Of a DNA stretch of 32,799 nucleotides, positions 12,301 to 31,724 are shown piece by piece. The translations under genes were made by a program, and so were the position numbers. The notes under the pieces were generated by a model. It did not search any database, was not told where the DNA came from, and saw nothing but the letters and a program-made list of their open reading frames with translations. Location of the stretch: positions 1 through 32,799 of the forward strand of contig JAJUFW010000001.1 in assembly GCA_029263555.1 (NCBI GenBank). The letters run 5' to 3'. Every line of letters begins with the position of its first letter. Within the stretch, counting starts at the first letter, position 1. The stretch is from Alphaproteobacteria bacterium (lineage in GTDB: Bacteria; Pseudomonadota; Alphaproteobacteria; DSM-16000; Inquilinaceae).

Positions 12301-12310
12301 GGAAAGCATC

Positions 12311-16172: not shown

Positions 16173-16948
16173 GCGTCGCCATCACCAAGAAGGACCATGT
16201 CCTCACGATCACGCTGGATCGGCCCGACCAGCTGAACGCGATCGATCCGGAGACGAGGGCGGGGCTAGTCGAGGCGTGGCGGTCGTTCCGGGAGGACGAC
16301 GACGCGTGGGTCGCCATTCTGACCGGGCGCGGCGAGAAGGCGTTCTGCGTCGGCTCCGACCTAAAGAAGACGATGCCGCCGGACGGCAGCTTCGCGGCGA
16401 CGCATTTCAGCGCAGCCGGCGGCGACGAGCTGTGGCGGCCGCTGCAGAACCTTTGGAAGCCGGTGATCGCGGCGATCAACGGCTATGCCTTCGGGGGCGG
16501 CCTGGAACTGGCGCTCGCCTGCGATCTCAGGATCGCCTCGACCAATGCGGTCTTCGCGCAGTCTGAGGTGCGGGTCGGCTCGATGGTCGGCGCCGGGGGC
16601 GCCATCCGGCTGATGCGCGTGGCGCCGCCGGCGGTGGCGATGAAGATGCTGCTCACCGGCGACCGGGTCAGCGCGGAAGAGGCCTATCGCATCGGCCTCG
16701 TCAGCGATCTGTGCCAGCCGCACGAGCTGATGGCCAAGGCCGAGGAGATCGCCGAGCAGATCTGCCGGAACGCGCCGCTGGCGGTGCGTGCGACGAAGAT
16801 GGCCGCCGTTCTCGGCCAGTCGATGCCGGTCGACCAGGGGCTCGAGGTCGAGCGGCTGCTCTGGGGCCTGCTGCGCAATACCGAGGACCGCATCGAGGGA
16901 CGCCGGGCCTTCGCCGAGAAGCGTGCGCCGAACTGGCGGGGCGCGTGA
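16169..16948 (+). CDS. Enoyl-CoA hydratase/isomerase (crotonase) family protein, 259 aa
   Basis: ATGA overlap at 16169-16172. Crotonase motifs ILTGRGEKAFCVGSDL and INGYAFGGGLELALACDLRIAS. Confidence 0.9.
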   Translation: MSVAITKKDHVLTITLDRPDQLNAIDPETRAGLVEAWRSFREDDDAWVAILTGRGEKAFCVGSDLKKTMPPDGSFAATHFSAAGGDELWRPLQNLWKPVIAAINGYAFGGGLELALACDLRIASTNAVFAQSEVRVGSMVGAGGAIRLMRVAPPAVAMKMLLTGDRVSAEEAYRIGLVSDLCQPHELMAKAEEIAEQICRNAPLAVRATKMAAVLGQSMPVDQGLEVERLLWGLLRNTEDRIEGRRAFAEKRAPNWRGA

Positions 16949-18105
16949 TGGCGGGCCATCTGCTGGACGAGCAGATCCGGGTCCCCTGCGTCATCATGCG
17001 GGGAGGCACGAGCAAGGGCGTCTTCTTCGACGAAGCCGACCTCCCGGCCGATCCCGAAGATCGCGCCGCCTTGATCCTCGCGGCGATGGGAAGCCCGGAT
17101 CCGCGCCAGATCGACGGCCTCGGCGGCGCCGATCCGCTGACGAGCAAGGTCTGCATCATCGGGCCCGGCGAAGCCTTCGGAGCGCACTGCACCTATACCT
17201 TCGCCCAGGTCGGCATCGACGAGCCCTATGTCGCGCTTTCCGGCAACTGCGGCAATCTGTCGGCCGCGGTCGGCGTCTACGCGATCGAGCGGGGGCTGGC
17301 CCCGGCGCAGGAGCCGGAAACGGAGGTGCGGATATACAACACCAATGCGCGCCAGATCCTGATCGCGCGGGTCCCGGTCCGGAACGGCCGGCCGGCGGTG
17401 GCAGGCGACTACGCCATCGCCGGGGTTCCGGGCACGGCGGCCGAGATCCGGATGGACTACTCGCAGACCGCCGGAGCCACGACCGGCCGGGTGCTGCCGA
17501 CCGGACAGCCGCGCGACAGCCTCTACATCCCGGAATTCGGCCGGTCGATCGAGATTTCGATCGTCGATATCGCCAAGGCGACCTGCTTCTTTCATGCCGC
17601 CGAGGCGGGCATCGCCGGGACGGAGGGACCGGAGGCGTTCACCGAGGAAATCCTCAACCGCTTCTGGGCGATCCGGAACGCGGCCGCCCGGCATATCGGC
17701 CTGGCGCCGGGTTCGCGGCTGCCGACACCCGTCGCCGTCGCCCGGCCGGCCGGCTATGTCAACTACATGACCAAGCAGCCCGTCCACGCCGAGGACGTCA
17801 GCTTCGTCGCGCGCCGGGTGATCGGGCCGCCGCCCCGCCTGCACAAGGCCTTCGCCTCGACGGGCGCGGTGTGCACGGCTTCGGCCGCGCGGATTCCGGG
17901 CACCATCGTCAACGAGGTCTGCCGGACGGACACGGACGACATCGTGCGGATCGGCCACCCGAGCGGGATTTTCCCGGTAAAGATCACCTTCGACGCCGAA
18001 GGTCGGTTGTCGGAGGCTTCCTATTCCCGCACGGCCCGTCGCATTCTCCAGGGCGAGGTCCTGATTCCCCGTCACCGCCTCGCGACCGGTTCGAAACGCC
18101 CCTGA
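16948..18105 (+). CDS. PrpF-family protein (2-methylaconitate isomerase / 4-oxalomesaconate tautomerase family), 385 aa
   Basis: ORF 16711-18105, trimmed to ATG 16948 (TGATG junction). N-terminus VPCVIMRGGTSKGVFFDEADLP, then GSPDPRQIDGLGGADPLTSKVCII. Confidence 0.85.
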   Translation: MAGHLLDEQIRVPCVIMRGGTSKGVFFDEADLPADPEDRAALILAAMGSPDPRQIDGLGGADPLTSKVCIIGPGEAFGAHCTYTFAQVGIDEPYVALSGNCGNLSAAVGVYAIERGLAPAQEPETEVRIYNTNARQILIARVPVRNGRPAVAGDYAIAGVPGTAAEIRMDYSQTAGATTGRVLPTGQPRDSLYIPEFGRSIEISIVDIAKATCFFHAAEAGIAGTEGPEAFTEEILNRFWAIRNAAARHIGLAPGSRLPTPVAVARPAGYVNYMTKQPVHAEDVSFVARRVIGPPPRLHKAFASTGAVCTASAARIPGTIVNEVCRTDTDDIVRIGHPSGIFPVKITFDAEGRLSEASYSRTARRILQGEVLIPRHRLATGSKRP

Positions 18106-18125
18106 AGAACAGCAGAAAGAAGGCC

Positions 18126-18572
18126 ATGACCATAAAGATACCTAGATCCAGGGATTTTTGGGCCGGCGTGACATTCATGCTTGTCGGGGCCCTTGCGATC
18201 TATTTCGGCTCGGATCTCGCGATGGGCGACGTGCGCCGCATGGGGCCACGCTACTTCCCGACCCTTGCGGCCGGCGGCCTGTTGGTGATCGGCGCGATCG
18301 TGGCCTTCCGGGGACTGGGCACCGAAACCGACCCGGGCAAAGCGGGCGCAGTGACGCCGGTGCTGATCCTGCTCTCCGTGCTGCTGTTCGGGCTGCTGCT
18401 CCGGCCGTTCGGCTTCGTCATCGCAACCGTGACGATGATCGCCGTGGCGAGCCTTGCCGGTCCGCGGATGCGTCTGGTCGAGCTCGTCGCCCTGGCGGCG
18501 GCGCTCACGGCGTTCTCCTGGCTCATCTTCGTATGGGCGCTTGGTCTTCCCCTGCAAACCTGGCCGGCGTGA
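18126..18572 (+). CDS. tctB: Tripartite tricarboxylate transporter small membrane subunit TctB, 148 aa
   Basis: This is the tail of ORF 16788-18572, from ATG 18126 (MTIKIPRSRDFWAGVTFMLVGALAIYFG...). It has four hydrophobic segments and sits immediately upstream of tctA. Confidence 0.8.
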   Translation: MTIKIPRSRDFWAGVTFMLVGALAIYFGSDLAMGDVRRMGPRYFPTLAAGGLLVIGAIVAFRGLGTETDPGKAGAVTPVLILLSVLLFGLLLRPFGFVIATVTMIAVASLAGPRMRLVELVALAAALTAFSWLIFVWALGLPLQTWPA

Positions 18573-18573
18573 G

Positions 18574-20082
18574 ATGGAACTTCTGGACAATCTGGCTCTC
18601 GGCCTCAGCGTCGCGCTGTCGGCCGAACATATGCTCGAGTGCCTGCTGGGCACGCTGCTCGGCACCCTGATCGGTGTGCTGCCGGGGCTCGGCCCGACCG
18701 CGACCATCGCGATCCTGTTGCCGATCACCTTCGGCCTGCCGCCTGCGGCTTCGCTGATCATGCTGGCCGGCATCTATTACGGCGCGCAGTATGGCGGGTC
18801 GACGACGTCGATCCTTGTGAACTTGCCCGGCGAGGCCTCGTCGGTCGTCACCTGTCTCGACGGCTACCAGATGGCGAGGCAGGGCAGGGCGGGGCCGGCG
18901 CTGACCGTCGCGGCGCTCGGATCGCTGTTCGCGGGCTGCATCGGCACGCTGTGCCTCGCCCTGTTCGGGCCGCCGCTCGCCAAGGCCGCGCTTTCCTTCG
19001 GACCTGCGGAGTATTTTTCCCTGATGGTCCTCGGGCTGGTGGCAGCGGTCGTGCTTTCGAGCGGGTCGCTCATCAAGGCGATCGGGATGATCTTTATGGG
19101 CCTCATGCTCGGTTGCGTCGGCACGGACGTGAACACCGGCGTGGCGCGCTACACCTTCGGATTTCACGAGCTGGGCGACGGCATCGACTTCATCGTCGTG
19201 GCGATGGGTGTCTTCGCCCTGGCCGAAATCATGCGCAACCTGGAGAAGCCGCAGGATCGCAGCGTGCTGAGCCGGCCGATCGGCCAGCTGCGGCCGAGCC
19301 GGGAAGAGATGCGGCGTTCGGTCGGACCGATCCTCCGCGGCACCACGCTCGGATCCCTGGTCGGCGCGCTCCCGGGGGCGGGCGCTGTGATCTCGTCCTT
19401 CATGTCCTATGCCCTGGAAAAGCGCATCTCGAAGCATCCGGAGCGTTTCGGCAATGGCGCGATCGAGGGTGTGGCCGGCCCGGAATCTGCCAACAACGCC
19501 TGTGCCCAGACCGCGTTCATCCCGCTCCTGACGCTGGGCATTCCGGGCGGCGCCGTCACGGCGCTGATGCTGGGTGCGCTGATGATCCACGGGATCGCGC
19601 CCGGCCCGCAGGTGATGACGCGCAATCCGGACGTGTTCTGGGGGCTCATTGCCAGCATGTGGGTCGGCAACGTGTTCCTGGTCATCCTGAACCTGCCGAT
19701 GATCGGCATCTGGGTCCGGCTGCTCCACCTGCCCTACCGGGTCCTTTTCCCGGCAATCCTCATGTTCTGCTGCATCGGAGTCTTCAGCCTCAACAACAGC
19801 ACCTTCGATGTGATGCTGATGGTCATCTTCGGTGCCTTCGGATACCTGCTGCTGAAGTTCGGGTGCGAGCCGGCGCCGATGCTGCTCGGGTTCATTCTCG
19901 GGCCGATGATGGAAGAGAACCTGCGGCGGGCCCTGCTGCTGTCCCGCGGTGACGCATCCGTGTTCGTCACGCGGCCGATCAGCCTCGTCATGCTGTCGGT
20001 CGCCGTCCTTCTGGTGCTGACCATCGTCCTGCCGGCAATGAAGAAGAGGCGCAACGAGATCCTCGTCGAGGCGGAGGACTGA
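18574..20082 (+). CDS. tctA: Tripartite tricarboxylate transporter large permease TctA, 502 aa
   Basis: ORF 18454-20082, trimmed to ATG 18574, 1 nt after the tctB stop. Starts MELLDNLALGLSVALSAEHMLECLLGTLLGTLIGVLPGLGPTATIAILLP. It is polytopic throughout. Confidence 0.9.
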   Translation: MELLDNLALGLSVALSAEHMLECLLGTLLGTLIGVLPGLGPTATIAILLPITFGLPPAASLIMLAGIYYGAQYGGSTTSILVNLPGEASSVVTCLDGYQMARQGRAGPALTVAALGSLFAGCIGTLCLALFGPPLAKAALSFGPAEYFSLMVLGLVAAVVLSSGSLIKAIGMIFMGLMLGCVGTDVNTGVARYTFGFHELGDGIDFIVVAMGVFALAEIMRNLEKPQDRSVLSRPIGQLRPSREEMRRSVGPILRGTTLGSLVGALPGAGAVISSFMSYALEKRISKHPERFGNGAIEGVAGPESANNACAQTAFIPLLTLGIPGGAVTALMLGALMIHGIAPGPQVMTRNPDVFWGLIASMWVGNVFLVILNLPMIGIWVRLLHLPYRVLFPAILMFCCIGVFSLNNSTFDVMLMVIFGAFGYLLLKFGCEPAPMLLGFILGPMMEENLRRALLLSRGDASVFVTRPISLVMLSVAVLLVLTIVLPAMKKRRNEILVEAED

Positions 20083-20161: not shown

Positions 20162-20773
20162 GTGCCACAGCAACTGACCCAATCGGACATCGAGGAGATC
20201 TTTCCGGAAATCCTCGAGATTTCCGACGAGAAGCTGCGCCTGGGCGTCGGCAGGATCTGGTGCGAGGTCGCCGCGGAGATGGCCTGGTCCGATCTCCACG
20301 ACATCCCGAAGAACACCAGCGCGGAGAAGCACCGGTCACTGGTCGGGCATGTTCGCGGCGTGACGCAGATGGCGATCCAGATCTGCGAGATCGCGCGGAC
20401 GATGCACGGGCGAAGCTACGACCGCGACCTTCTGGTCGACGCCTGCCTGCTTCACGACGTGAGCAAGGCGGTGGAATCGGAGCCGCTGCCCGACAGCGGG
20501 GTCGATAGCGCGGGCGAGGCGAAGCCGCTGCCCGGACAGTCGAGCGCGCTCGGCCGGAACGTGCCGCATGCGGTCTATGCGACCCACAAGATCTTCGCCC
20601 ATGGGCTGCCGGTGGAGCTTGCGCATCTGGTCGCGACGCATACGCATTCGAGCAACGTCCGCGGCCGTACCTGGGAAGCGTCGGCCCTGTTCTATGCCGA
20701 TTTCGCCGATTCGGACGCTGCGCGCAGCATGGTCGGCGGCAAGATGTTCTCCGAGCGCTGGCATCTGGGCTGA
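20162..20773 (+). CDS. HD-domain protein (putative metal-dependent phosphohydrolase), 203 aa
   Basis: GTG start with GGGGGAG 7 nt upstream. Shows an H...HD pattern (GHVRGV...ACLLHDVSK...ATHTH). It lies 79 nt downstream of tctA on the same strand. Confidence 0.65.
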   Translation: MPQQLTQSDIEEIFPEILEISDEKLRLGVGRIWCEVAAEMAWSDLHDIPKNTSAEKHRSLVGHVRGVTQMAIQICEIARTMHGRSYDRDLLVDACLLHDVSKAVESEPLPDSGVDSAGEAKPLPGQSSALGRNVPHAVYATHKIFAHGLPVELAHLVATHTHSSNVRGRTWEASALFYADFADSDAARSMVGGKMFSERWHLG

Positions 20774-20892: not shown

Positions 20893-21345
20893 TCAGCCGG
20901 CCCTGCCGCCGTTCACCGATTCGACCGGCGCGTCGCGCCGGCGGGCCCGTTCGGCATTGTTGATGATGGTCTGGATGGTGACCGACCGAAGGGTGGCGCA
21001 GGTGATCCGGTCGATTTCGCCGAGAACCCTGGACACCTCGTCGGCGACGGTCGTCCCCCGGGATTCGCCGGCCGTCTCGTTGCTCCACCAGTCGTTCTCG
21101 AACAGGCGGACGATGTCGTACAGCGTGATGCGCCTGGCATCGCCGACGAACATGCACCCGCCGGCCGGGCCGCGGATGGAGCTCACGATCTTGGCATGGG
21201 CAAGCGTCCGCAGCACCTTGGCGAGGTGATGCTGCGACACGCCATATTTCGCGGCCAGGTCCGCGGCCGAAACCAGTTCGCCCTTTCGGGACGCGGTTTC
21301 GACAACGGCCCAGATCGCGTACCGGGTCGCCTGCTGTAGTTTCAT
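20893..21345 (-). CDS. Rrf2-family transcriptional regulator, 150 aa
   Basis: MKLQQATRYAIWAVVETASRKGELVSAADLAAKYGVSQHHLAKVLRTLAHAKIVSSIRGPAGG is a typical Rrf2 wHTH. I saw no three-Cys cluster motif. Confidence 0.85.
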   Translation of the reverse strand: MKLQQATRYAIWAVVETASRKGELVSAADLAAKYGVSQHHLAKVLRTLAHAKIVSSIRGPAGGCMFVGDARRITLYDIVRLFENDWWSNETAGESRGTTVADEVSRVLGEIDRITCATLRSVTIQTIINNAERARRRDAPVESVNGGRAG

Positions 21346-21388: not shown

Positions 21389-21877
21389 TCATGATTCGTC
21401 GGCCGACATTTCCAGTTCTATGTACGGGCCCGCGGCCATTCCATGCATCCGGAAGAACGACATCAGCACATGATCGTCGATGTGCAGCATCGTGCGGATC
21501 GTATCCGCACCGGATTCCCGCAGGAAGGCGACCATTTCCCGGAACAGCATCGTGCCCGTCCCGTGCTTGCGGGCGGACGGGTCGACGCCGATCGCGTGAA
21601 TCCAGCCGGCGGGCGGCGAGCCGAATTCCCAGGCGCGAACCGTCCCAATGATGTAGCCGACGACGACATTGTCGCGCCGCGCCACCAGGAAGGCGCTCTT
21701 GGGATTCGTCCCCTGGCTGCTGAAGAACGAGTACCAGAATTCCGCTTTCGGGTGTCCCGTGATCGCGACATCGATGTCGACCACCCGGGGAATATCCGCG
21801 AGGGATGCCGGACCAACGGTTACAAGCTCGCTCGGGAACTGCTCCCGGGTTTCCAGGCCACGGTCGACGGAAGGCAC
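21389..21877 (-). CDS. GNAT-family N-acetyltransferase, 162 aa
   Basis: ORF 21389-21952. Acetyl-CoA binding region HAIGVDPSARKHGTGTMLFREMVAFLRE. Start moved to GTG 21875-21877, with GGAGAG 8 nt upstream. The 25 codons above it are AT-rich and use atypical third positions. The start remains uncertain. Confidence 0.7.
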   Translation of the reverse strand: MPSVDRGLETREQFPSELVTVGPASLADIPRVVDIDVAITGHPKAEFWYSFFSSQGTNPKSAFLVARRDNVVVGYIIGTVRAWEFGSPPAGWIHAIGVDPSARKHGTGTMLFREMVAFLRESGADTIRTMLHIDDHVLMSFFRMHGMAAGPYIELEMSADES

Positions 21878-22030
21878 GGATTTGTCTCTCCAACGGTCTA
21901 TTGTCGGCAGAACAGATAGTTCTGAATGCCTGCAATTTCCACGTATTTCCATTGTAAATAGAGCGGAGATCGGAGGGCCAGCAGAATTTCCGGCGGCGCT
22001 GCCGGCTGCGGCGGAGGCCGGCAGACGCCC

Positions 22031-22049: not shown

Positions 22050-23060
22050 TCAGCCCATCAGCCCGGCTTCCCTGTATGCCCGCTCGGCCCCGGGGTGAAG
22101 CGGCGCGCCGCCGAGCGTTTCGGGCCGCCAGGCGATCTTGGGATCGAAGGGCGAAAGAGCCGCATTCTGCTCCTTCAGGGCATCGGCATTCTCGATGAGC
22201 GCCTTGGTCATCGCATAGGCGAGATCGTCGGACATGCCCGCGTTGACGATCAGCACCGTGGTCGCGCCGGGCAGGGTCAGGTCCTCCGTTATGCCGTCGA
22301 AGGAATTGGCGGGCAGGACCGCGCGCTGATAGCCGAGATCGACCATGGTCTGCAGCGCCTCGTCCGAGATGCTGACCCATTCGATGTCGTGGCTGAACGC
22401 GACTTCCTGGACCTTCGGATGCCCGGGGGTCACGGGCTGGACCCAGACATCGGCACGCCCTTCCACCAGCGCGTCGGCCGCGGCCTGCAGGGCACCGCGG
22501 TTGATCGAGCCGCCGTAACCGTTCAGCGTGGCCTCGTCGATGCCGTGGGCGCGCAGCAGAATCTGTGCGCTCACCTCGCCGATTGAACCCGGCTGGAGGC
22601 ACGAGATCCGGACCGGCTTCTTCGCCGCAAGCGCCTCCGACAGATTCTCGAATCCGGTGCCCTTCCGGGCCAGCATGACGATGTAGTACTGGTCCAGGCC
22701 GCCGGCGAGGGCGCGGACATTCTCCGCCGTCGCGTCCTGAATATCGGTCATGCCGGCAAGCGCCCAGCGCAGATTGGTGCTGAACGTCATGCCGAGCTGG
22801 ATGCGCTGGTTCTCGTTGATCAGCTTGATGTTCCCGACCGCGGCCGCGTAGGGGCGGACGTTCACCGTGCCGCCGCCCGGAAGCACCGGCTGAAGGAACT
22901 GGGCGATCTGAATGCCGTACTGGTACCAGGCACTGCCCGCCGCCATGGTGCCCATGTCGATGTCCTGGGCCTGGGCGAAGGACCGCCCGCCGGCCAGCAT
23001 GACCGAAGCGGCCAGCGATCCGGCAATCACGTCCCGGCGCGACGGCTTGTATGCACTCAT
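22050..23060 (-). CDS. TAXI-family TRAP transporter solute-binding protein, 336 aa
   Basis: Tat-like signal (SRRDVIAGSLAASVMLAGGRSFAQAQD), then GTMAAGSAWYQYGIQIAQFL...VNVRPYAAAVGNIKLINENQ, which is typical of TAXI receptors. It is adjacent to a fused TRAP permease. Confidence 0.85.
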   Translation of the reverse strand: MSAYKPSRRDVIAGSLAASVMLAGGRSFAQAQDIDMGTMAAGSAWYQYGIQIAQFLQPVLPGGGTVNVRPYAAAVGNIKLINENQRIQLGMTFSTNLRWALAGMTDIQDATAENVRALAGGLDQYYIVMLARKGTGFENLSEALAAKKPVRISCLQPGSIGEVSAQILLRAHGIDEATLNGYGGSINRGALQAAADALVEGRADVWVQPVTPGHPKVQEVAFSHDIEWVSISDEALQTMVDLGYQRAVLPANSFDGITEDLTLPGATTVLIVNAGMSDDLAYAMTKALIENADALKEQNAALSPFDPKIAWRPETLGGAPLHPGAERAYREAGLMG

Positions 23061-23090
23061 GGTTACGCACTCCCTAACATTTGTCGTTGT

Positions 23091-25031
23091 TCAGCCGGGT
23101 TGGGTCCCGGACGTTGTTGCGCCGACGGGTTCGACGGACCGGGTCGCCCCCTGCCAGAGAAATATGGCGGCCAGGACGATCCCGCCTGCGGTGCTCACCC
23201 AGAGGGAGGGATAGATCAGCGCCACGGCCGCACCGATCAGCAGGACGCGTTCGACCGGCCGGTTCCTCCGCCGCATGTAGCCGACATTGGCCGCCGCCAG
23301 CGCGTAGACGCCGATCAGCGCCGTGGCGAAGGACACCATCGTCGGCACGGCGTCCCCTTCCATGATCAGGGCGGGCTCGACGACGAAGGCGAAGGGCACC
23401 AGATAGGCCGGAACGGCCAGCCGGACGGTCGTCCATCCGACCCTGGACGAGGAGGTCCCGGCGATCGAGGCCGCCGCGAAGCTGGCGAGCGCCACCGGCG
23501 GCGTAATCATGGACAGGCAGGAGAAGTAGAAGACGAACAGATGGGCGGCCATCTGGTTGACGCCCAGCTGCATGAGCGTCGGAACGAAAAGGGTCGCTCC
23601 CATGATGTAGGCGGCGGTCGTCGGCAGTCCCATCCCCATGACGATGCATCCGACGGATACGGCCACGAGACAGATCAGGAGATTGTCGCCGGACAGCGCC
23701 ACCAGCAGTTCGGTGAAACGCACGCCGATTCCGGTCTGGACGACGATCCCGACGACGATCCCCGCCGCCGCGCTGGGAATGGCGACCGTGATCGCCCGCG
23801 ATCCGCCCGCCGCCTGGGCCTTCCGGATCCGTCGCGGGCCCAGCCGCGACGCGGCCGAGAACAGGCTGACGGCGATGCTGATGCCGACCGCCTCTACCGC
23901 GCCCGCCATGAGCTGCCGGCCGCTCATGACCGCGTAGATGAGATAGGCCAGCGGCAGGAGCAGGTAGAGCTGAGGCAGGCTCTTTGCCAGCGGAACCCGG
24001 TCCTCCGGCGGGATCGGGCGGATGTCGCGGTATCGCGCCTCGAGATCGACCGCCAGGAAGACCGCAAGATAGTAGACGATGGCGGGCAGGACGGAGGCGA
24101 TGACGACCGCGCTGTAAGGCACACCCAGATTCTGGGCGATGATGAAGGCCGCGGCGCCCAGCATCGGCGGCATGAGCTGGCCGCCGGTAGACGAGAGCGC
24201 CTCCACGGCACCGGCGAAATGGGGCTTGTAGCCGGTCCGCTTCATGAGTGGGATCGTGAAGATGCCCGTCCCCATGACATTGGCGACGGCGCTGCCGCTT
24301 GTCATGCCGAGCAGGGCCGAACCCGTGGTGGCCGCTTTCGCCGCTCCTCCGCGATATTTGCCGGTCATGGCGATGGCCAGGTTGATGAAGAGCTGGCCGC
24401 CGCCCGTGGCTTCGAGGAACGCGCCGAAAAGGATGAAATAGAAGACGTATGTCGCCGAGACGCCGATCGGGGTTCCGAAGATGCCTTCCGTCGTCAGCAC
24501 CTGCAGATCCAGGAAGTCGGCCAGGGAGAGCCCGGAATGCCTGAGCGCCGTCGGCAGGCTGGGGCCGGCGAAGGCATAGGCGATGAAGACGAGCACCACG
24601 ATGGTCATGCCGAGCCCGGCGACCCGGCGACCCGCTTCGACGACCATGACGACGATCGCGAGGCCGACCGCCGTATCGACCGAGCTCAGGCTGTCGACCA
24701 GCGGGATCCGGAGCGCCAGCGCCTCGCGGTTCCAGAGATAGTAGGCGAGAACGAGGGCGGAGGCGGCGATGGCAAGGATGCTGATCGCGGCATCGACCGG
24801 GTTGCGGTCGCCGCCGGCCTCCCTCGCCTCGTCCGTCTTCCGGCTCTTCGAGACCGCCGGATAGAGGGCGAAGGTGACGGCAAGAGCGAAGGCCAGGTGC
24901 GCGGGCATGAGGACCAGTTCGTCATAGTTCCCCATGAACACGAACGAAACCTGGACGATCGACCAGAGCCCGGCGAGGAGCATGCCCGCCCAGGCGATCC
25001 TGCGCCCCAGGGCACCGTCGGGAACGGTCAT
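23091..25031 (-). CDS. TRAP transporter fused (small plus large) permease, TAXI-associated type, 646 aa
   Basis: A long polytopic membrane protein, 30 nt upstream of the TAXI receptor gene on the same strand. Confidence 0.85.
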   Translation of the reverse strand: MTVPDGALGRRIAWAGMLLAGLWSIVQVSFVFMGNYDELVLMPAHLAFALAVTFALYPAVSKSRKTDEAREAGGDRNPVDAAISILAIAASALVLAYYLWNREALALRIPLVDSLSSVDTAVGLAIVVMVVEAGRRVAGLGMTIVVLVFIAYAFAGPSLPTALRHSGLSLADFLDLQVLTTEGIFGTPIGVSATYVFYFILFGAFLEATGGGQLFINLAIAMTGKYRGGAAKAATTGSALLGMTSGSAVANVMGTGIFTIPLMKRTGYKPHFAGAVEALSSTGGQLMPPMLGAAAFIIAQNLGVPYSAVVIASVLPAIVYYLAVFLAVDLEARYRDIRPIPPEDRVPLAKSLPQLYLLLPLAYLIYAVMSGRQLMAGAVEAVGISIAVSLFSAASRLGPRRIRKAQAAGGSRAITVAIPSAAAGIVVGIVVQTGIGVRFTELLVALSGDNLLICLVAVSVGCIVMGMGLPTTAAYIMGATLFVPTLMQLGVNQMAAHLFVFYFSCLSMITPPVALASFAAASIAGTSSSRVGWTTVRLAVPAYLVPFAFVVEPALIMEGDAVPTMVSFATALIGVYALAAANVGYMRRRNRPVERVLLIGAAVALIYPSLWVSTAGGIVLAAIFLWQGATRSVEPVGATTSGTQPG

Positions 25032-25413
25032 CGGCCCTCTCCGGGACGGCGCGCACGAGCGCGGGGCCGGTTGGGACGCCTCCTCCGCTCCGCCGTTCCG
25101 TGATCCCGGGACCGATCTGCCGATCTGCGCAGCATCGAAGGGCCTCCCATGATCGTTTTTCTGGTTCGTACCGCCAATGCATCACCCTGCATTTCGACTG
25201 TCAAGTACGAAAATGCCGAATTTACAGCCTGCGAACATCCGAATCTTGCAGCGACGGCTCTGGTGCGCGAGTTTTATATTGGTATTCTGGTATTACGATG
25301 CTCTCATTAACGGCAGCGACGCCAGCGTACGCTCATGGACCATCAACGGGAGGGAGAGCCCGGCAGCCCATCCGGGATCTGCCGCGGACGACGCACAGTG
25401 GAGTGAGCAGCAG

Positions 25414-27051
25414 ATGACAGCGCGGACCGAGATGCGTTTCGACGACCGGATCTATTCGCAGGCCTGGCGGGAATGGCAGGATCCCGCCGTTCCGGAGTTC
25501 TTCAACGCGGCTGAAATGCTCCTCGGCCGTCATGCCGGCACGGCGACCGACGACAAGCCGGCCATCCTGGTGGACGGAAGCGCGGTCAGCTATCGCGAGC
25601 TCCGCGACCTGGTCAGGCGGACGTCGAGGGGCTTGCGCGATCTGGGGCTGCGGACCGGCGACCGGATCCTACTCTTCGGAACGGACAGCCTGGAATATAT
25701 CGCGATCTGGCTGGGCGCTGTCAGGGCCGGGATCGTGCCGGCCGCCGTCTCCGATCTCTATAAGACGAAGGATCTTCTCTATTTCCTCCGGGACACGGAT
25801 GCCCGGGGCCTGTTCATCGACTCCGAACAGCTTCCGAAGCTGGCCGAGATTGCGGACGACCTGCCGGAGGGGCTGGAGGCGATCGTGGTCCGCGGCGGAG
25901 CCGAAGCCCCTGCCGTCGGCTTCGGAGGCCGGACCGTGGTCGATGCCGGCCGGGTGCTGGCGGCCGAGGACAGCCTGCCGGCGCCGCTCCGCCACAGTGA
26001 CGACGTCTGCTACATGTTCTATTCCGGCGGGACGACGGGGACGGCGAAGGGCATTACCCATCTCTGCCACGACTTCTTCCTGGTGCCCGAGCGGCAGGGC
26101 CATTATTGGGAGTACAAGGCGGACGACGTCGTTTTCGCGACCTCCAAGAAATATTTCACCCACGGCCTCTGGCCGGGCATCCTGATTCCCCTCTACTGGG
26201 GCGCGACCGCCGTGCTGCAGCGCCGTCCCCCGACGCCGGAGGCCGTCATCGACGGCGTGACTACCGCCGGGGCGACCAAGTTGATCACCGTGCCGACGGT
26301 CATCAAGAACCTTCTGGAACATTGCCGCGTCAATGACCTGAAGCCCGATTTCGGCAGGCTGCAGTTGGTCGTGAGCGCGTCCGAGAAGATCCCGCCCGAG
26401 ATCTTCGACCGGTTCAGCGGGCTCTTCGGGCTGGAGATCCTGGATTCGATCGGCAGCTCCGAGGTGACCTATGAGTGGATCGCCAACCGGCCGAAGGAGT
26501 TCAAGCGCGGCAGCCTGGGCAAGCCCGTCTTCGGCTATGAAATCCGTCTGGTGGGCCCCGACGGCCAAGACATCGTGGAGCCCGGCGTCGCTGGCGAGGC
26601 CTGGGTGAAGAGCCGGACCGCGTGCTTCTTCTACTGGCGCAAGTTCGACAAGTCCCGGGAAACCTTCATCGGCCCGTGGACCAGGACGGGGGACAACCTC
26701 TATTTCGACGAGGACGGCTTCTTCTGGTTCGCCGGTCGCGAGAACGACGTCTTCAAGGTGAAGGGCCTGTGGGTCTCGCCGATCGAGATCGAGGCGGCGA
26801 TCACCGAGCATCCGGCCGTTCTCGAAGCGGCGGTGGTGGCCTATGAGGACAAGGACGGAATGACGAAGCCGCGAGCCTTCGTCGTCCTGCGCACCGACAC
26901 CCAAGCCGACGACGCCCTGGTGGAGGCGTTGAAGGAACGGGTTCGCGTGCTGGGCGGCTACAAGGTGCCGGAAGACTTCCGCTTCGTCGACCAGCTGCCG
27001 CGCACGACGCTCATGAAGATCGACCGCAGGGCGTTGCGGGCGCTTCCCTGA
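25414..27051 (+). CDS. AMP-forming aromatic-acid CoA ligase (benzoate-CoA ligase family), 545 aa
   Basis: ORF 25177-27051, trimmed to ATG 25414 (MTARTEMRFDD...). The upstream 79 codons are AT-rich and look non-coding. Motifs: AMP motif MFYSGGTTGTAKG, LDSIGSSEV, WTRTGDNLYFDEDGFFWFAGRENDVFKVKGLWVSPIEIE, and terminal MKIDRRALR. Confidence 0.85.
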   Translation: MTARTEMRFDDRIYSQAWREWQDPAVPEFFNAAEMLLGRHAGTATDDKPAILVDGSAVSYRELRDLVRRTSRGLRDLGLRTGDRILLFGTDSLEYIAIWLGAVRAGIVPAAVSDLYKTKDLLYFLRDTDARGLFIDSEQLPKLAEIADDLPEGLEAIVVRGGAEAPAVGFGGRTVVDAGRVLAAEDSLPAPLRHSDDVCYMFYSGGTTGTAKGITHLCHDFFLVPERQGHYWEYKADDVVFATSKKYFTHGLWPGILIPLYWGATAVLQRRPPTPEAVIDGVTTAGATKLITVPTVIKNLLEHCRVNDLKPDFGRLQLVVSASEKIPPEIFDRFSGLFGLEILDSIGSSEVTYEWIANRPKEFKRGSLGKPVFGYEIRLVGPDGQDIVEPGVAGEAWVKSRTACFFYWRKFDKSRETFIGPWTRTGDNLYFDEDGFFWFAGRENDVFKVKGLWVSPIEIEAAITEHPAVLEAAVVAYEDKDGMTKPRAFVVLRTDTQADDALVEALKERVRVLGGYKVPEDFRFVDQLPRTTLMKIDRRALRALP

Positions 27052-27171
27052 CGGGGGTCGCCTCCACGGCCCCTGCGCCACCGGGGCGGCCTGACCCGCC
27101 CGGGGTCATGGGGATGAAATGCGGGCGGCCGGCCATCTCGGCCAGCCGCCCAACGATCGGGGTCAGGAGAC

Positions 27172-27197
27172 GAGAGGACGGCGCACCGTCCCCTCTC
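27172..27197. terminator. Imperfect hairpin between the convergent ligase and UbiD-family genes
   Basis: GGACGG (27176-27181), loop cgca, then CCGTCC (27186-27191). GAGA/TCTC extends the stem across a 2 nt bulge. No U-tract. Confidence 0.25.
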
Positions 27198-27211
27198 CCC
27201 ATCCCGTTCGG

Positions 27212-28768
27212 TCACTCCGTCTTGAACCCGTATTCGGCCCAGCGTCGGGCGACGAGTTCCGCGTGCTCCGGCAGCGGACGGACGGTCGGCGGATAGCGGT
27301 CGCCCTTGTATTGTTCCTGCGGCTCGAAATCGAGGTTCCGGGTCGCGTCGATGAGGACGCGGCACCACTTGCCGGTGCCCCACTTGATGGGATCGCGGTA
27401 TTCCAGCCGGGTCGACGGATCGAGCAGCGAGCCGAAGGTGCCGGGGAAGAAGACGATGTCGTCCTCCGCGGCGTTGACGCGATAGGCGAACGCCCAGTCG
27501 AGCGCGCCATAGTCCCGGATGTCGATATCGTCGTCCACGACCCAGATGTGCTTGTAGCGCAGGTGCGAGGAGTTCGAGCCCCAGATTGCGGCTGCCGCCT
27601 GCTTGGCCTGGCCGCGATAGGTCTGCTTGAGTTGGATGATCAGCGTCGTGCCGTTGTTGGCGGCCGAGCAGTGGACGTCGGTGACACCCGGGACGCCCGC
27701 CGCCTTCAGCACGTTCCAGGCGACGCCGGCGCGCTGGACCGAGCTGGTGACCGAGTTCTCGTTCAGCATCTTCGGCAGCGTGCCCTCGAGCGTGCCGCGG
27801 AAGATCGGATTCCGGCGCATGGTGACGCAGGTGACCTTGGTCACGTGCTTCGGGCCCTGGTCGCCGCCGAAATAGCCCGTGTACTCGCCGAACGGGCCTT
27901 CCATCTCGAAGGTCGAGGGATCCGCATCGATATAGCCTTCGATGACCAGCTCGGCGCTGGCCGGCACCATAATGTCGCTGGTCTCGCACTTCACCAGCGG
28001 CACCGGCTCGCCGCGGATGGCGCCCATGACCTCGTATTCGGAGACGCCGGTCGGGATCGGGGCCGAGGCGCAATAGGGCAGCACCGGCTCCCAGCCATAG
28101 ACATGGGCGACCGGCATCTTCATGCCGCGTTCGGCCCATTTCTGGAAATGCTGGCCCCAGTGCTGCGCCTTCCAGAGAAGGACCGGGATCGTATCCTTCT
28201 GGCCCAGCATGCCGCGATAGATGCCGATATTGTGCTGCCCCGTATCGGGATCGATCGTGACCGTTCCCTGATAGGTGTTGATGTAGCGCCCGCCGTCCAG
28301 GCCGTGCCACCGGGGGACCGGCAGCTTGTAGACGTCGATCTCGTCCCCCTTGTAGATCACCTCCTTGACCGGACCGGTCTCGACCGTCGCCGGCTTCACC
28401 CGCTGGCTGAAATAGTGCTGCGTCGCCAGGATCAGATCCCGAACCGACGCCGTCTTCGGCAGGCCCAGCATCATGGCGATACGGCGGTAGCTGGAGAGCC
28501 CGCCGGTGAAGAGCTGCCGGGACCAGACGTCGTCGTTGGGCCCGTAATCCTTGATGTTCTTGAACAGCAGCGCGGGCCCGTCGCCCGTGCCGAAGGCCCG
28601 CCGGGCGATCGCCCCCAGCTCTCCGTCCCAGTTCACCTCGGCATCGATCTCGTGCAGCTCCCCCTCCTGGCGCAGCGCCTCGATCCATCCGCGAAGATCA
28701 CCGAAGGCGCGCGGCTTCAGCTTGCTCACGATCTCCGGATTCTCGGAGGCAGTATCGGTCATGGGCAT
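27212..28768 (-). CDS. UbiD-family (prFMN-dependent) decarboxylase, 518 aa
   Basis: Full-length UbiD architecture. The conserved E-x4-E acid motif is present (FEMEGPFGEYTGYFGG), along with IGIYRGM, KAQHWGQH and PASAELVIEGYI. The start could instead be the third codon, ATG 28760-28762. Confidence 0.9.
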   Translation of the reverse strand: MPMTDTASENPEIVSKLKPRAFGDLRGWIEALRQEGELHEIDAEVNWDGELGAIARRAFGTGDGPALLFKNIKDYGPNDDVWSRQLFTGGLSSYRRIAMMLGLPKTASVRDLILATQHYFSQRVKPATVETGPVKEVIYKGDEIDVYKLPVPRWHGLDGGRYINTYQGTVTIDPDTGQHNIGIYRGMLGQKDTIPVLLWKAQHWGQHFQKWAERGMKMPVAHVYGWEPVLPYCASAPIPTGVSEYEVMGAIRGEPVPLVKCETSDIMVPASAELVIEGYIDADPSTFEMEGPFGEYTGYFGGDQGPKHVTKVTCVTMRRNPIFRGTLEGTLPKMLNENSVTSSVQRAGVAWNVLKAAGVPGVTDVHCSAANNGTTLIIQLKQTYRGQAKQAAAAIWGSNSSHLRYKHIWVVDDDIDIRDYGALDWAFAYRVNAAEDDIVFFPGTFGSLLDPSTRLEYRDPIKWGTGKWCRVLIDATRNLDFEPQEQYKGDRYPPTVRPLPEHAELVARRWAEYGFKTE

Positions 28769-29153
28769 TTCCTTCCATTGGGCGCCGACCCGCTCACGCC
28801 CGGCTTCCGAGCTCAGAGCGATCGGCTGCGACGGGGACTGGCCTGATTGACTCAGGCTCGTTCCAGCTCGGGTGACGTCTGGCGAGCTGATAAACGCGTA
28901 TACCTATACCAGATAGTGATTTTGTGTCCACAAGAATGCGAAACGAAAGCGAATCTTGCGCAGCCCAGCGCCCCCTATGGGCGTCCCCGGCCGAGATCGT
29001 TCGTGGCATTACGTTACCAAAATGCCGCCCGGCGTTGCCGGGTGCGGTCCGGCGTACTAGACTGCCGTCGAAATGCCGAAGATAGAGCGTCCGGCGACCG
29101 GGGTCCCCGACCGAGTCCCCCGCGCCGGCAGCAACCTACCACCCCAAAGCGAT

Positions 29154-29693
29154 ATGGATCGTCCCATCGACCTGACCGGCCCGCACTGGGCCTTTTCCCT
29201 GGATGTCTACGGCCAGCCGACGGTCCCGGCATCCTGCCTGCTGCTGCAGGACCGCTGCGGCGTCGACGTGAACGTGCTGCTGCTGTGCCTCTTCGCCGCC
29301 TGCCGGGGCGCCCCGACGCCGTCCGAACAGGACATCGCCGCCCTGGACGGCGAGATCGAACGTCTGCGCCGGGAGGTGGTCGTGCCCCTGCGGCAGATCC
29401 GCCGCGCCATGAAGATCATGCCGGAAGCGGATCTGGGGCGCGAGTTCGACTCCGTACGCAATCGGGTGAAATCCGCCGAGCTGGCGGCCGAGCAGCTGCA
29501 GCAGGCCATGCTGGCGAGGCTGTTGCCGGACGGGAGCCCGCGCGGCGACTTCGACGCGCTAGCGACGGCAAGGGCGGTCGTCGGCTTCTATGCCGGGCGG
29601 ACCGGGTCCCGGGACGCGATGGGAGACGAGGACATCGAGCGCGCGATCGCATCCGTTGCCGACGCGGCGCAACGTGCCGGCGGCAGATCATGA
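29154..29693 (+). CDS. DUF2390 / TIGR02444-family protein of unknown function, 179 aa
   Basis: ORF 29073-29693, trimmed to ATG 29154 (MDRPIDLTGPHWAFSLDVYGQPTVPASCLLLQDRCGVDVNVLLLCLFAA). The family was recognised from memory of its N-terminal signature. Confidence 0.6.
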   Translation: MDRPIDLTGPHWAFSLDVYGQPTVPASCLLLQDRCGVDVNVLLLCLFAACRGAPTPSEQDIAALDGEIERLRREVVVPLRQIRRAMKIMPEADLGREFDSVRNRVKSAELAAEQLQQAMLARLLPDGSPRGDFDALATARAVVGFYAGRTGSRDAMGDEDIERAIASVADAAQRAGGRS

Positions 29694-30271
29694 CCCCAGC
29701 CGAGCGTTCCGTGCAGGTGTCGCTGCTCGATCCCGGAACCGATCGCGTCGTCGCGACCATGGACAAGCTGCAGGCGCATGTGGAGGGCCGCTACCATGCC
29801 GCCATCTCGGTCCTGCTGCACAGCCCGGACGGCGGGCAGCTCATACAGCAGAGGGCGGTCGCGAAGTATCACGGCGGCGGGCTGTGGAGCAATGCGTGCT
29901 GCAGCCATCCCCTTCCCGGGGAAAGCGCGGCGGCGGCCGCACAGCGGCGCCTGCACGAGGAGATGGGGATCACGACGCCTCTCACGCCGGTCGGCGTCGT
30001 CCGCTATCGGGCGGAGGTGCCGGTGGCCGGGGGCGGCTTCCTGATCGAGCACGAGCGCGTCGAGATCTTCGCCGGCGTCTATGACGGGCCGGTCGATCCC
30101 GATCCGGCGGAGGTGGCACAGACGCGCTGGCTTCCGCCCGGCCATGTCCCGGGCGGGCCGGACGTCCGGCTCACGCCCTGGTTCCGGCTTTACACGGAAA
30201 TCATCGATGCGCGCCCGGGCCGGCTGCCCCGAGCGCCCGTCGACTACGGGTATTTCGATCTGTCCTGCTGA
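29690..30271 (+). CDS. idi: Isopentenyl-diphosphate delta-isomerase, type 1 (Nudix fold), 193 aa
   Basis: This is the tail of ORF 28847-30271, from ATG 29690 (ATGA overlap with the DUF2390 stop). IDI-1 catalytic and metal residues are visible: HVEGRYHAAISV, WSNACCSHP (Cys/His) and IEHERVEIF (Glu-x-Glu). Confidence 0.85.
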   Translation: MTPAERSVQVSLLDPGTDRVVATMDKLQAHVEGRYHAAISVLLHSPDGGQLIQQRAVAKYHGGGLWSNACCSHPLPGESAAAAAQRRLHEEMGITTPLTPVGVVRYRAEVPVAGGGFLIEHERVEIFAGVYDGPVDPDPAEVAQTRWLPPGHVPGGPDVRLTPWFRLYTEIIDARPGRLPRAPVDYGYFDLSC

Positions 30272-30322
30272 ACCGGCCCGGGTCCGGACGTCGCCGACCC
30301 CGCCCTGCCGCAGCCCGGCCCT

Positions 30323-30931
30323 TCAGCCCGCGTCGTCCGGGAGAGGCGTCGCCCGGCCGCTCGCCGGCTCGTCCTCGCGCCAGCGCTTGACGATGCGCGC
30401 GTCGATGTCGAACAGGTCCAGCGCGCGCCCGACCGTCTGGTTCACAATGTCGTCGATCGTCTTCGGCCGGTGATAGAAAGCCGGCACCGGGGGCATGACG
30501 ATGGCGCCGGCGCGGGTCGCCTGGTCCATGAGCGAGATATGCCCGGCATGCAGCGGCGTCTCGCGAAGCAGGAGGACGACCCGCCGCCTCTCCTTCAGGC
30601 AGACATCGGCCGCCCGCACCACCAGTTCGTCGTTGTAGCAGTTGGCGATCCCGCTCAAGGTCTTGATCGAGCAGGGCGCGACCAGCATGCCTTCGACCCT
30701 GAACGACCCGGACGAGATCGCCGCGCCGATGTCGCGGTGGCTGTAGACCTTGTCCGCAAGGTCCCGCACCTCGTCGGCCGTGTGATCGGTTTCCTCGAGC
30801 AGCGTCCGCACGGCCGACGGCGTCATGACGAGATGCGTCTCCACGTCCGGCAGCTGCCGCAGGACCTGAAGCGCACGCACCCCGTAGATGACGCCGGAGG
30901 CGCCGGTCAGCGCGACGATGAGTCTTCTCAT
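30323..30931 (-). CDS. ubiX: UbiX flavin prenyltransferase (prFMN synthase), 202 aa
   Basis: RLIVALTGASGVIYGVRALQVL, MLVAPCSIKTLSGIANCYNDELVVRAADVCLKERRRVVLLLRETPL and MPPVPAFYHRPKTIDDIV. ATGA overlap with the upstream MaoC gene at 30928-30931. Confidence 0.9.
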   Translation of the reverse strand: MRRLIVALTGASGVIYGVRALQVLRQLPDVETHLVMTPSAVRTLLEETDHTADEVRDLADKVYSHRDIGAAISSGSFRVEGMLVAPCSIKTLSGIANCYNDELVVRAADVCLKERRRVVLLLRETPLHAGHISLMDQATRAGAIVMPPVPAFYHRPKTIDDIVNQTVGRALDLFDIDARIVKRWREDEPASGRATPLPDDAG

Positions 30932-31449
30932 GACATTTCCTTCCCCAAGGCCGATCCGGCATCCGCCGCGTCGTCCTGCCTCGGGACGACAAGCTGCGGG
31001 CGCATGATCTGCACGATTTCATCGTTCTGGTTGCGGGTTTCGACCCGGACGCCGGCGAGGCCGATATCCGGCCGTGAGCGGGATTCCCTCAAAGTCTCGA
31101 CCGTGACGACCACATGCAGCTCGTCATCGGGCACGACCGGGCGCGGCCAGCGGATCTCCCCCACGCCGGCGCCGATCAGCCCACCCGCGATCGGCACCGC
31201 CTCCACGAACAGGCGCATGGTCACGGCCGCAGTATGCCAGCCGCTGGCGACGAGCCTGCCGAACAGGGTCTGGGCCGCGCGTTCGGGGTCGACGTGAAAG
31301 ACCTGGGGATCGTAGACAGTGGCGAACGCGCGGATGTCCGCAAGCGTCATGCGATGGCTGCGGGAGCGGAAGCTGTCCCCGATCCGGAGCTGGCTGAAGG
31401 TGAGAAGATCCCGCCTATCGGGCGCGACGACGCTGGCGTTCCGGATCAT
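30928..31449 (-). CDS. MaoC-like (hotdog-fold) dehydratase family protein, 173 aa
   Basis: ORF 30928-31485, trimmed to ATG 31447-31449 (MIRNASV...), with GGAG 6 nt upstream. Contains FATVYDPQVFHVDPERAAQTLFGRLVASGWHTAAV, a hydratase-2/MaoC-type motif. Confidence 0.75.
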   Translation of the reverse strand: MIRNASVVAPDRRDLLTFSQLRIGDSFRSRSHRMTLADIRAFATVYDPQVFHVDPERAAQTLFGRLVASGWHTAAVTMRLFVEAVPIAGGLIGAGVGEIRWPRPVVPDDELHVVVTVETLRESRSRPDIGLAGVRVETRNQNDEIVQIMRPQLVVPRQDDAADAGSALGKEMS

Positions 31450-31724
31450 GACGTCTCCGTTGGCTGTCCGGCACCAGGCCGGCATGCGGCGGCACCGCGC
31501 CGATGCGCCTGCATCTCGACGACCTGCTCGGCGGCTTGATCACGGGGCCTTCTCATGCGATCCAATTCGGTATTCCGGTACAAGTTTATGACCATAATCC
31601 GCCCAAGGCAATCCGCGTCTTGCCCGCACGGGCCGGTTGGCGGCCGGCGGCCACTGCGATAGTGTCGACCGGCCGACACCGGCCGCGGACGGCCCCTGTC
31701 GACGGCTGCCGGAGGGCGAAGGCG

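Follow-up and report, generated by a model that had tools for sequence, protein, structure and literature searches.

Which partner does the small protein DUF2390 serve at a locus where its gene is coupled to one for an isopentenyl diphosphate isomerase (IDI), faces ubiX tail to tail and diverges from a gene of the UbiD family? The question is raised by a stretch of 32,799 nucleotides (positions 1 to 32,799, forward strand, contig JAJUFW010000001.1, assembly GCA_029263555.1) from an alphaproteobacterium of the family Inquilinaceae, hereafter called the window. UbiX, UbiD and type-1 IDI (IDI-1) are textbook families: UbiX prenylates reduced flavin mononucleotide (FMN), bacterial UbiX uses dimethylallyl monophosphate (DMAP), and IDI makes dimethylallyl diphosphate (DMAPP) from isopentenyl diphosphate (IPP). 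Here we report that the conserved link is that of DUF2390 with UbiX and not with idi, and that DUF2390 probably works with UbiX in the biogenesis of prenylated FMN (prFMN). Three lines of evidence carry this general claim: the genes co-occur, they are neighbours in three orientations and in four taxonomic groups, and they are gained and lost together. The features in question are the following, with lengths in nucleotides (nt) or amino acids (aa).

27212-28768, minus strand: prFMN-dependent decarboxylase of the UbiD family, transcribed away from DUF2390; the genome has four such UbiD paralogues
28769-29153: divergent intergenic region of 385 nt between UbiD and DUF2390-idi, read from the sequence
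29154-29693, plus strand: DUF2390/TIGR02444 protein of 179 aa, all-helical in the model, assigned by family scores
29690-30271, plus strand: type-1 IPP isomerase-like NUDIX protein of 193 aa, with the residues of Escherichia coli Idi matched
30272-30322: spacer of 51 nt between the convergent idi and ubiX stops, read from the sequence
30323-30931, minus strand: UbiX flavin prenyltransferase of 202 aa, assigned by family scores

A sample of 301 genomes drawn evenly from the class was searched for DUF2390, IDI-1 and UbiX, and the places of the matches were then compared. The tallies take in the unpublished genome G058 (IDI and UbiX, no DUF2390), and no claim hangs on that genome alone. DUF2390 was found in 95 of the 301 genomes and UbiX in 140, both being present in 94; the one DUF2390 genome in which UbiX was not found is an assembly 90% complete. 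Fisher's exact test for this co-occurrence gives p = 2e-41, a figure that overstates the association since relatives are not independent. The two genes are also neighbours: 43 of the 97 DUF2390 loci lie no more than 10 kb from ubiX on the same contig, in 29 GTDB families, and in 33 of the 97 no more than 400 bp separate the matched parts of the two genes. Among the 43 near pairs, 36 are convergent, six co-directional with UbiX first and one divergent. The stops of the convergent pairs mostly overlap by 4-18 nt (20 loci examined, e.g. L032:3986-5037, L036:3406-4523 and L041:4020-5158), so that overlap of the two transcripts is unavoidable. The wider gene order is mostly COQ9-like > < purK < purE DUF2390 > < ubiX. 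Caulobacter vibrioides has a single DUF2390 and a single UbiX.

Joint presence and absence is seen within the window's own family. The family is represented by 24 further genomes, of which only G003 and G016 were found to have UbiX; DUF2390 occurs in the same two, adjacent to ubiX in both; with the window genome included, three genomes have both genes and 22 have neither. The window DUF2390 is not nearest to that of G003 or G016 in the tree, and the UbiX-DUF2390 module was probably acquired separately. Co-occurrence across genomes had been named as a check in the original prediction from this DNA, and on the UbiX side it ties DUF2390 to UbiX, together with adjacency and the joint presence and absence in the family, far more strongly than could be foreseen from the sequence alone.

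Outside the class sample, a similarity scan for DUF2390 with one genome per species yielded 11 loci, eight of which have ubiX within 4.5 kb and six of these eight directly adjacent. Those with a nearby ubiX include Chelativorans sp. J32, a Betaproteobacteria metagenome-assembled genome (MAG) and three Mycobacteriaceae or Actinomycetes MAGs. At the Mycolicibacterium locus (L071) UbiD, an SRPBCC protein and a second UbiD are encoded on one strand, DUF2390 and UbiX on the other.

The open reading frame (ORF) of the window DUF2390 covers 29073/29154-29693 on the plus strand, and the ATG at 29154 is favoured by the gene callers in four other assemblies and by the alignment of homologues. Its TGA stop (29691-29693) overlaps the idi ATG (29690-29692) in an ATGA junction at 29690-29693. 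The stop codons of the convergent idi and ubiX genes occupy 30269-30271 and, on the minus strand, 30323-30325. A translational coupling of DUF2390 to idi at this junction and a distance of 51 nt from the end of the pair to the 3' end of ubiX had both been read from the sequence before; the coordinates of the first are confirmed, with overlaps of 4 nt recurring in relatives, and the second follows from the stop positions. The 385-nt region 28769-29153 is presumed to be a control region common to UbiD and DUF2390-idi. A scan of 28700-31700 gave no sigma-70 or promoter-like site and no terminator-like site in the idi-ubiX spacer; the sole terminator-like hairpin sits inside the DUF2390 coding region and is no more than shuffled sequence yields. 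A 71-aa ORF at 28794-29009 (minus strand) was considered as a small D-type subunit and rejected, having no family match and being uncalled in the other assemblies.

The host MAG consists of 729 contigs and is 85% complete; UbiX, DUF2390 and IDI-1 are each encoded once in it, alongside four UbiD paralogues and IspH. The whole arrangement was also found in four other assemblies of the same organism (bioreactor, sludge, other metagenomes). Metatranscriptome contigs from four runs cover UbiD, DUF2390, IDI, UbiX and a MaoC-like gene beyond UbiX; such RNA-library contigs may include DNA and carry neither strand nor level. Four of them bridge the DUF2390/IDI junction and one the idi-ubiX spacer, again with DNA carry-over possible.

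DUF2390 corresponds to the family TIGR02444, COG5589 and PF09523. The window protein exceeds the curated cut-offs of both models, with 96.8 bits for PF09523 (cut-off 25) and 85.7 bits for TIGR02444 (cut-off 48.3). The family comprises about 6,100 cluster representatives at 50% identity, nearly all of them single-domain proteins of about 170-190 aa, and is spread mainly over Pseudomonadota with some Actinomycetes. Literature on DUF2390, TIGR02444, PF09523 and COG5589 yielded incidental table entries only and no functional paper. A structure model built from a 69-sequence alignment is all-helical, with a predicted local distance difference test (pLDDT) of 95.8 and a predicted template modelling score (pTM) of 0.91. 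Five residues (Q32, R80, R83, E109 and E113) do not vary among 64 distinct members drawn from four taxonomic groups; in the same set Y19 and W12 are conserved to more than 90%, and C28, D38 and R102 to about 85%. In the model R80 and R83 lie on helix 5, and E109 and E113 on one face of helix 6 (i, i+4), which suggests that the Arg pair and the Glu pair may together bind a phosphorylated ligand and a metal.

Comparison of the DUF2390 model with the PDB by Foldseek gave no usable match (best E 1.1), and VIA-align against 48,161 chains gave helical-hairpin matches only, with Z of 5 or less. A shape search of the ESM Atlas returned the DUF2390 family alone, a feature search of the Atlas returned no usable match, and a profile of the 69 sequences found nothing among PDB sequences at E up to 10. 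None of these fold, Atlas and profile searches brought out a recognisable hydrolase motif or fold in DUF2390. Complex prediction for UbiX and DUF2390, both entered as alignments, scored 0.00 and gave no verdict. A search for DUF2390 fusions turned up four longer proteins. One of them, the DUF2390-UbiX protein P0220, was rejected as a Rosetta-stone fusion: its contig carries UbiD and molybdenum hydroxylase genes in pieces, and the fusion is probably an indel artefact. The single database proteins P0219 and P0222 join DUF2390 to a MoCoBD fragment or a cupin and may be assembly artefacts.

In phmmer the product of the coupled downstream gene matches structures of E. coli Idi, among them 1NFS and 1HZT (E 3e-13). 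The known catalytic, metal-binding and diphosphate-binding residues of E. coli Idi include Cys67 and Glu116 as catalytic residues, His25, His32, His69, Glu114 and Glu116 as metal ligands, and Tyr104 and Trp161 as further members of the set. The pairs matched (window/E. coli Idi) are K26/K21, H30/H25, H36/H32, R55/R51, K59/K55, C71/C67, H73/H69, R87/R83, E91/E87, Y106/Y104, E120/E114, E122/E116 and W164/W161, and the catalytic and ligand residues are also kept in the orthologues coupled to DUF2390 elsewhere. The protein is the only IDI-1 match in the host genome, and its closest named relatives carry IDI annotation. It falls below both NCBIfam equivalog cut-offs (115.9 vs 127 bits for NF002995, 88.9 vs 105.8 bits for TIGR02150), with an E-value against these IDI models that is still strong (1.7e-33). 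The original prediction had called it a bona fide type-1 IDI: the matched residues agree with this, the equivalog scores do not, and on its sequence we regard the protein as a probable, diverged type-1 IDI.

With the known type-1 IDI represented by 1NFS and 1HZT the protein shares the NUDIX fold, the aligned catalytic and ligand residues and dispensability where IspH is present. It differs in scoring below the equivalog cut-offs and in being coupled to DUF2390 beside ubiX rather than standing in a carotenoid or general isoprenoid context. IspH is encoded in the host genome, so idi is an accessory (extra) gene here, in agreement with the earlier statement that idi is dispensable in bacteria with the methylerythritol phosphate (MEP) pathway.

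The low equivalog scores leave room for a further explanation, in which the IDI-like protein is a Nudix hydrolase that itself supplies UbiX with DMAP by acting on DMAPP, while DUF2390 helps in some other way. Nudix enzymes are known in-vitro sources of DMAP (PMC12359138), the protein is itself a member of the NUDIX superfamily, and by our own reading its Nudix-box remnant RRLHEEMGI is nearer to the hydrolase consensus than that of E. coli Idi. We consider this explanation very improbable: the isomerase-specific C71, E122, Y106 and W164 and the His/Glu metal site are kept, here and in the coupled orthologues, and the closest named relatives are annotated as IDI.

How widely idi accompanies DUF2390 was followed in the same samples. 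At none of the 96 other DUF2390 loci of the class sample does the contig also carry idi; six genomes of that sample encode both IDI-1 and DUF2390, on one contig only in the window's genome. None of the 11 loci of the one-genome-per-species scan has idi nearby. Close IDI relatives that are not accompanied by DUF2390 exist (L025, L026). The nearest relatives of the window DUF2390, 42-58% identical and mostly metagenomic, stand in the contexts listed below; the stretches examined around the Faunimonas and Propylenella loci measure 12 to 16.5 kb.

L013: DUF2390-IDI, with UbiD 5 kb off and a UbiX-like gene 8 kb off
L015 (Faunimonas sp. B44): GNAT-Rrf2-DUF2390-IDI, no ubiX in the available sequence
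L024 (Propylenella binzhouense): GNAT-Rrf2-DUF2390-IDI, no ubiX in the available sequence
L023: UbiD-UbiX-DUF2390-IDI, both junctions overlapping by 4 nt
L017: UbiX-DUF2390-IDI, IDI frame broken
L018: DUF2390, with only a remnant of IDI behind it
L016: idi absent
L067 (Chelativorans): idi absent

Across the nine contexts that include the window, idi is intact in five, decayed in two and absent in two. All nine form one clade with 99% support by the approximate likelihood ratio test SH-aLRT (quick tree, 66 DUF2390 sequences), so idi was captured once and then lost or decayed several times. Recruitment of idi to a UbiX setting, as predicted earlier, is seen in the UbiD-UbiX-DUF2390-IDI operon of L023 and in L017; a general DUF2390-idi unit is not, the pairing being restricted to this one clade. 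DUF2390-idi pairs standing apart from ubiX, which had been named as a finding that would speak against the prediction, occur in part, in Faunimonas and Propylenella within the stretches examined. Genes for molybdenum hydroxylases (xanthine-dehydrogenase family) recur beside the DUF2390 of this clade (L015:2398-6718, L016:2468-6797, L018:9170-13571, L024:1-2468, L078:2160-5914).

The coupled pair bears on what DUF2390 might do on the donor side of UbiX. IDI would give DMAPP, and DUF2390 would convert DMAPP to DMAP, or hold or deliver DMAP, for UbiX. This role, offered as pure speculation in the original prediction, we hold to be less likely than not, though roughly level with the product-side reading given below, and we grade no higher its narrower form, a two-step feed line from IPP over DMAPP to DMAP with DUF2390 as a dedicated enzyme or carrier having a helical fold without known relative. 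Coupling of DUF2390 to IDI in the window, L015, L023 and L024 argues for such a role, as do the persistence of the pair in the available sequence lacking ubiX (L015 and L024; a remnant in L018) and the position of DUF2390 between UbiX and IDI in the operon. Dimethylallyl phosphate species are the only metabolites joining the IDI product to the UbiX substrate. The two Arg, two Glu, Gln, Tyr and Trp of DUF2390 could make up a set suited to Mg-diphosphate and an allyl group, and the literature consulted names no dedicated DMAP-forming enzyme (PMC12359138). Against a donor-side role stand the lack of a recognised hydrolase motif or fold in DUF2390, the absence of idi from nearly all DUF2390 loci and the tracing of every idi coupling to one clade.

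The sources of DMAP described for E. coli are the promiscuous Nudix hydrolases NudB, NudF, NudI and NudJ, or ThiM acting on prenol (PMC12359138). NudJ, NudI, NudB, NudF and ThiM supply the monophosphate donor, the very step that a donor-side role would give to DUF2390. They are promiscuous housekeeping enzymes not encoded with ubiX, and DUF2390 is neither a Nudix protein nor a kinase.

We slightly prefer a reading on the product side, with the donor-side role staying a live rival. In analogy to the job of LpdD, DUF2390 is tentatively seen, at somewhat less than an even chance, as a product-handling helper at UbiX. The locus itself looks like a self-contained prFMN supply unit for the neighbouring UbiD-family decarboxylase and its three paralogues. 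In such a unit UbiX would prenylate reduced FMN with DUF2390 acting as its conserved partner, and idi, added as a coupled downstream gene in one lineage, would raise the DMAPP pool that feeds the prenyl donor. As a small helical helper DUF2390 would hold the oxygen-sensitive reduced prenyl-flavin and hand it to the UbiD enzymes, its Arg80/Arg83 and Glu109/Glu113 face possibly binding phosphate and metal. Other helper roles for DUF2390, such as keeping FMN reduced or UbiX assembly, take up the remainder of the probability.

The gene lpdD presumably adjoins the UbiX gene lpdB, far from lpdC. LpdD of the Lactiplantibacillus plantarum gallate decarboxylase system is a chaperone whose binding is confined to reduced prFMN and which assists the activation of canonical UbiD; it is a dimer with a Pba3/4-like fold, for which a crystal structure is reported (PMC10865409). 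LpdD and DUF2390 are alike as small accessory proteins encoded with UbiX/UbiD and needed for neither chemistry as such. They differ in that DUF2390 is predicted to be all-helical and LpdD has the Pba3/4-like fold. DUF2390 is not a member of the LpdD family but may work like it. The DUF2390 profile matched no PDB sequence at E up to 10, a set in which LpdD is assumed to be present from its reported crystal structure, and no LpdD or Pba3/4 entry was among the Foldseek and VIA-align matches of the model, where an absent match does not exclude a fold.

A second comparison is offered by PhdC/YclD, a prFMN oxidative maturase that boosts UbiD enzymes unable to mature the cofactor themselves, has an HpaC-like flavin-reductase fold and is reported in Actinomycetota only (PMC13040415). 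Canonical UbiD is not activatable without a helper of this kind (PMC10865409, PMC13040415). LpdD and PhdC/YclD are the published helpers of the UbiX/UbiD system, both small proteins that bind prFMN. PhdC/YclD resembles DUF2390 in being a small protein encoded beside UbiX/UbiD genes; DUF2390 shows no sequence or fold likeness to PhdC. At the Mycolicibacterium locus L071, where DUF2390 stands by UbiX, no flavin-reductase family match was found among the flanking ORFs scanned.

Several observations weigh against tying DUF2390 to UbiX in this manner. The main one, which contradicts a simple picture of the two being always together, comes from other classes, probably Gammaproteobacteria. A phylum-wide sample contains 26 genomes of other classes with DUF2390, the place of UbiX is listed for 23 of these, and in none of the 23 are DUF2390 and ubiX closer than 64 kb. 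DUF2390 there adjoins genes for an ABC-F ATPase (640 aa) and an FKBP-type peptidyl-prolyl isomerase (L047-L057), a context that no explanation ties to prFMN. Some of the adjacency in Alphaproteobacteria is embedded in a longer conserved block and could be inherited gene order. The capture of idi is one historical event, so gene order within that clade carries little weight, and the DUF2390-IDI pairs lacking ubiX in the Faunimonas and Propylenella stretches fit a prenyl-donor role at least as well. Foldseek, VIA-align and the PDB profile gave DUF2390 no sequence or fold likeness to LpdD or PhdC. The role of DUF2390 is put forward from gene context and predicted structure, its binding and activity being hypothetical.

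Some of these facts would also suit an explanation without any link at the protein level, in which DUF2390 and ubiX are neighbours by inherited gene order or by cis regulation of their overlapping convergent transcripts, and idi landed beside them by chance. The usual alphaproteobacterial pair does lie within the longer purE, purK and COQ9-like block, its stop-to-stop overlap forces the transcripts to overlap, and the DUF2390 of other classes is far from ubiX. This explanation is nevertheless judged improbable. Adjacency is kept in three orientations and in unrelated catabolic clusters, including those of Actinomycetes, DUF2390 and ubiX were gained or lost jointly in the window's own family, and UbiX is present in 94 of 95 DUF2390 genomes. 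Co-directional pairs with a 4-nt overlap, as in L023, cannot act by antisense.

A partnership of DUF2390 with UbiX touches two gaps. UbiD-family decarboxylases are widely wanted as (de)carboxylation catalysts, and many UbiD enzymes, the canonical ubiquinone enzyme included, are not obtained active by co-expressing UbiX alone; the in-vivo origin of the UbiX prenyl donor is likewise unsettled. DUF2390 is a large family that is almost never found without UbiX and for which no publication on function was found, and it is therefore a concrete and cheap candidate for either gap. If DUF2390 is indeed a helper, the picture of ubiquinone biosynthesis would also be filled in for many Alphaproteobacteria. 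The capture of idi and the UbiD-UbiX-DUF2390-IDI operon show that some bacteria treat these genes as one unit, which offers a ready-made co-expression set. New in the present work are the quantified, cross-phylum link of DUF2390 with UbiX, its habitual tail-to-tail overlap in Alphaproteobacteria and the capture of idi by one clade.

The window UbiX scores 263.3 bits against NF004685 (cut-off 188) and 240.1 bits against TIGR00421 (cut-off 108.9), is the only UbiX detected in the 85%-complete genome and is 73-79% identical to the UbiX adjoining DUF2390 in L017, L023 and L067. The UbiD-family protein (27212-28768) matches PF20695, PF01977 and PF20696 and reaches 307.5 bits against TIGR00148 (cut-off 244.85); no substrate-specific family model was reached. 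It is 80% identical to the UbiD adjoining the L016 DUF2390, and its closest solved relative is the generic UbiD-family decarboxylase 7pda (E 4e-65). The other UbiD paralogues lie on contigs C194, C421 and C523 (loci L020-L022). With four UbiD paralogues but one UbiX in this 85%-complete assembly, the UbiX-DUF2390-IDI unit would serve several decarboxylases. The remaining neighbours are the following.

20893-21345, minus strand: Rrf2 regulator
21389-21952, minus strand: GNAT acetyltransferase
22050-25031, minus strand: TAXI-type TRAP transporter, with binding protein (22050-23060) and fused permease (23091-25031)
25177-27051, plus strand: benzoate-CoA ligase family protein, 411 bits against TIGR02262 (cut-off 375), start 25414 favoured by gene callers
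30928-31485, minus strand: MaoC-like dehydratase, start put at 31449 by gene callers
beyond the MaoC-like gene at the right end of the window, plus strand: methyltransferase

The MaoC-like gene is coupled translationally to ubiX by a second ATGA, on the minus strand at 30928-30931, in which its stop overlaps the ubiX start. In the Betaproteobacteria locus L074, too, a MaoC-like gene follows the UbiX-DUF2390 pair, about 1.4 kb further downstream. In two relatives a DUF465/YdcH-like gene for a small coiled-coil protein adjoins DUF2390 (L007:1360-2220, L008:1181-2026).

The benzoate-CoA ligase family protein is a likely partner of the UbiD enzyme. The genes for UbiD, for an enzyme of the benzoate-CoA ligase family and for a TAXI-type TRAP transporter are grouped in a conserved module, present at 22050-28768 of the window and at L016:8001-16537, the L016 ligase being 55% identical to that of the window. 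The arrangement recalls CoA-ligase and decarboxylase routes for aryl dicarboxylates (phthalate isomers).

GNAT and Rrf2 genes lie directly upstream of DUF2390 in Faunimonas (L015:6993-8004), L016 (L016:7006-7989) and Propylenella (L024:2659-3760), and the L015 Rrf2 gene even runs with its stop into the start of DUF2390. In the window the GNAT and Rrf2 genes are 7-8 kb off on the opposite strand, as if the TRAP-ligase-UbiD block had been inserted between. The Rrf2 gene is adjoined by one for an HD-domain protein (20162-20773), a putative phosphohydrolase and the only other such candidate near the module, for which no tie to prenyl phosphate metabolism was seen. A separate organic-acid cluster further upstream (10303-20082) encodes two MmgE/PrpD proteins, two family-III CoA transferases, an enoyl-CoA hydratase, PrpF and TctA.

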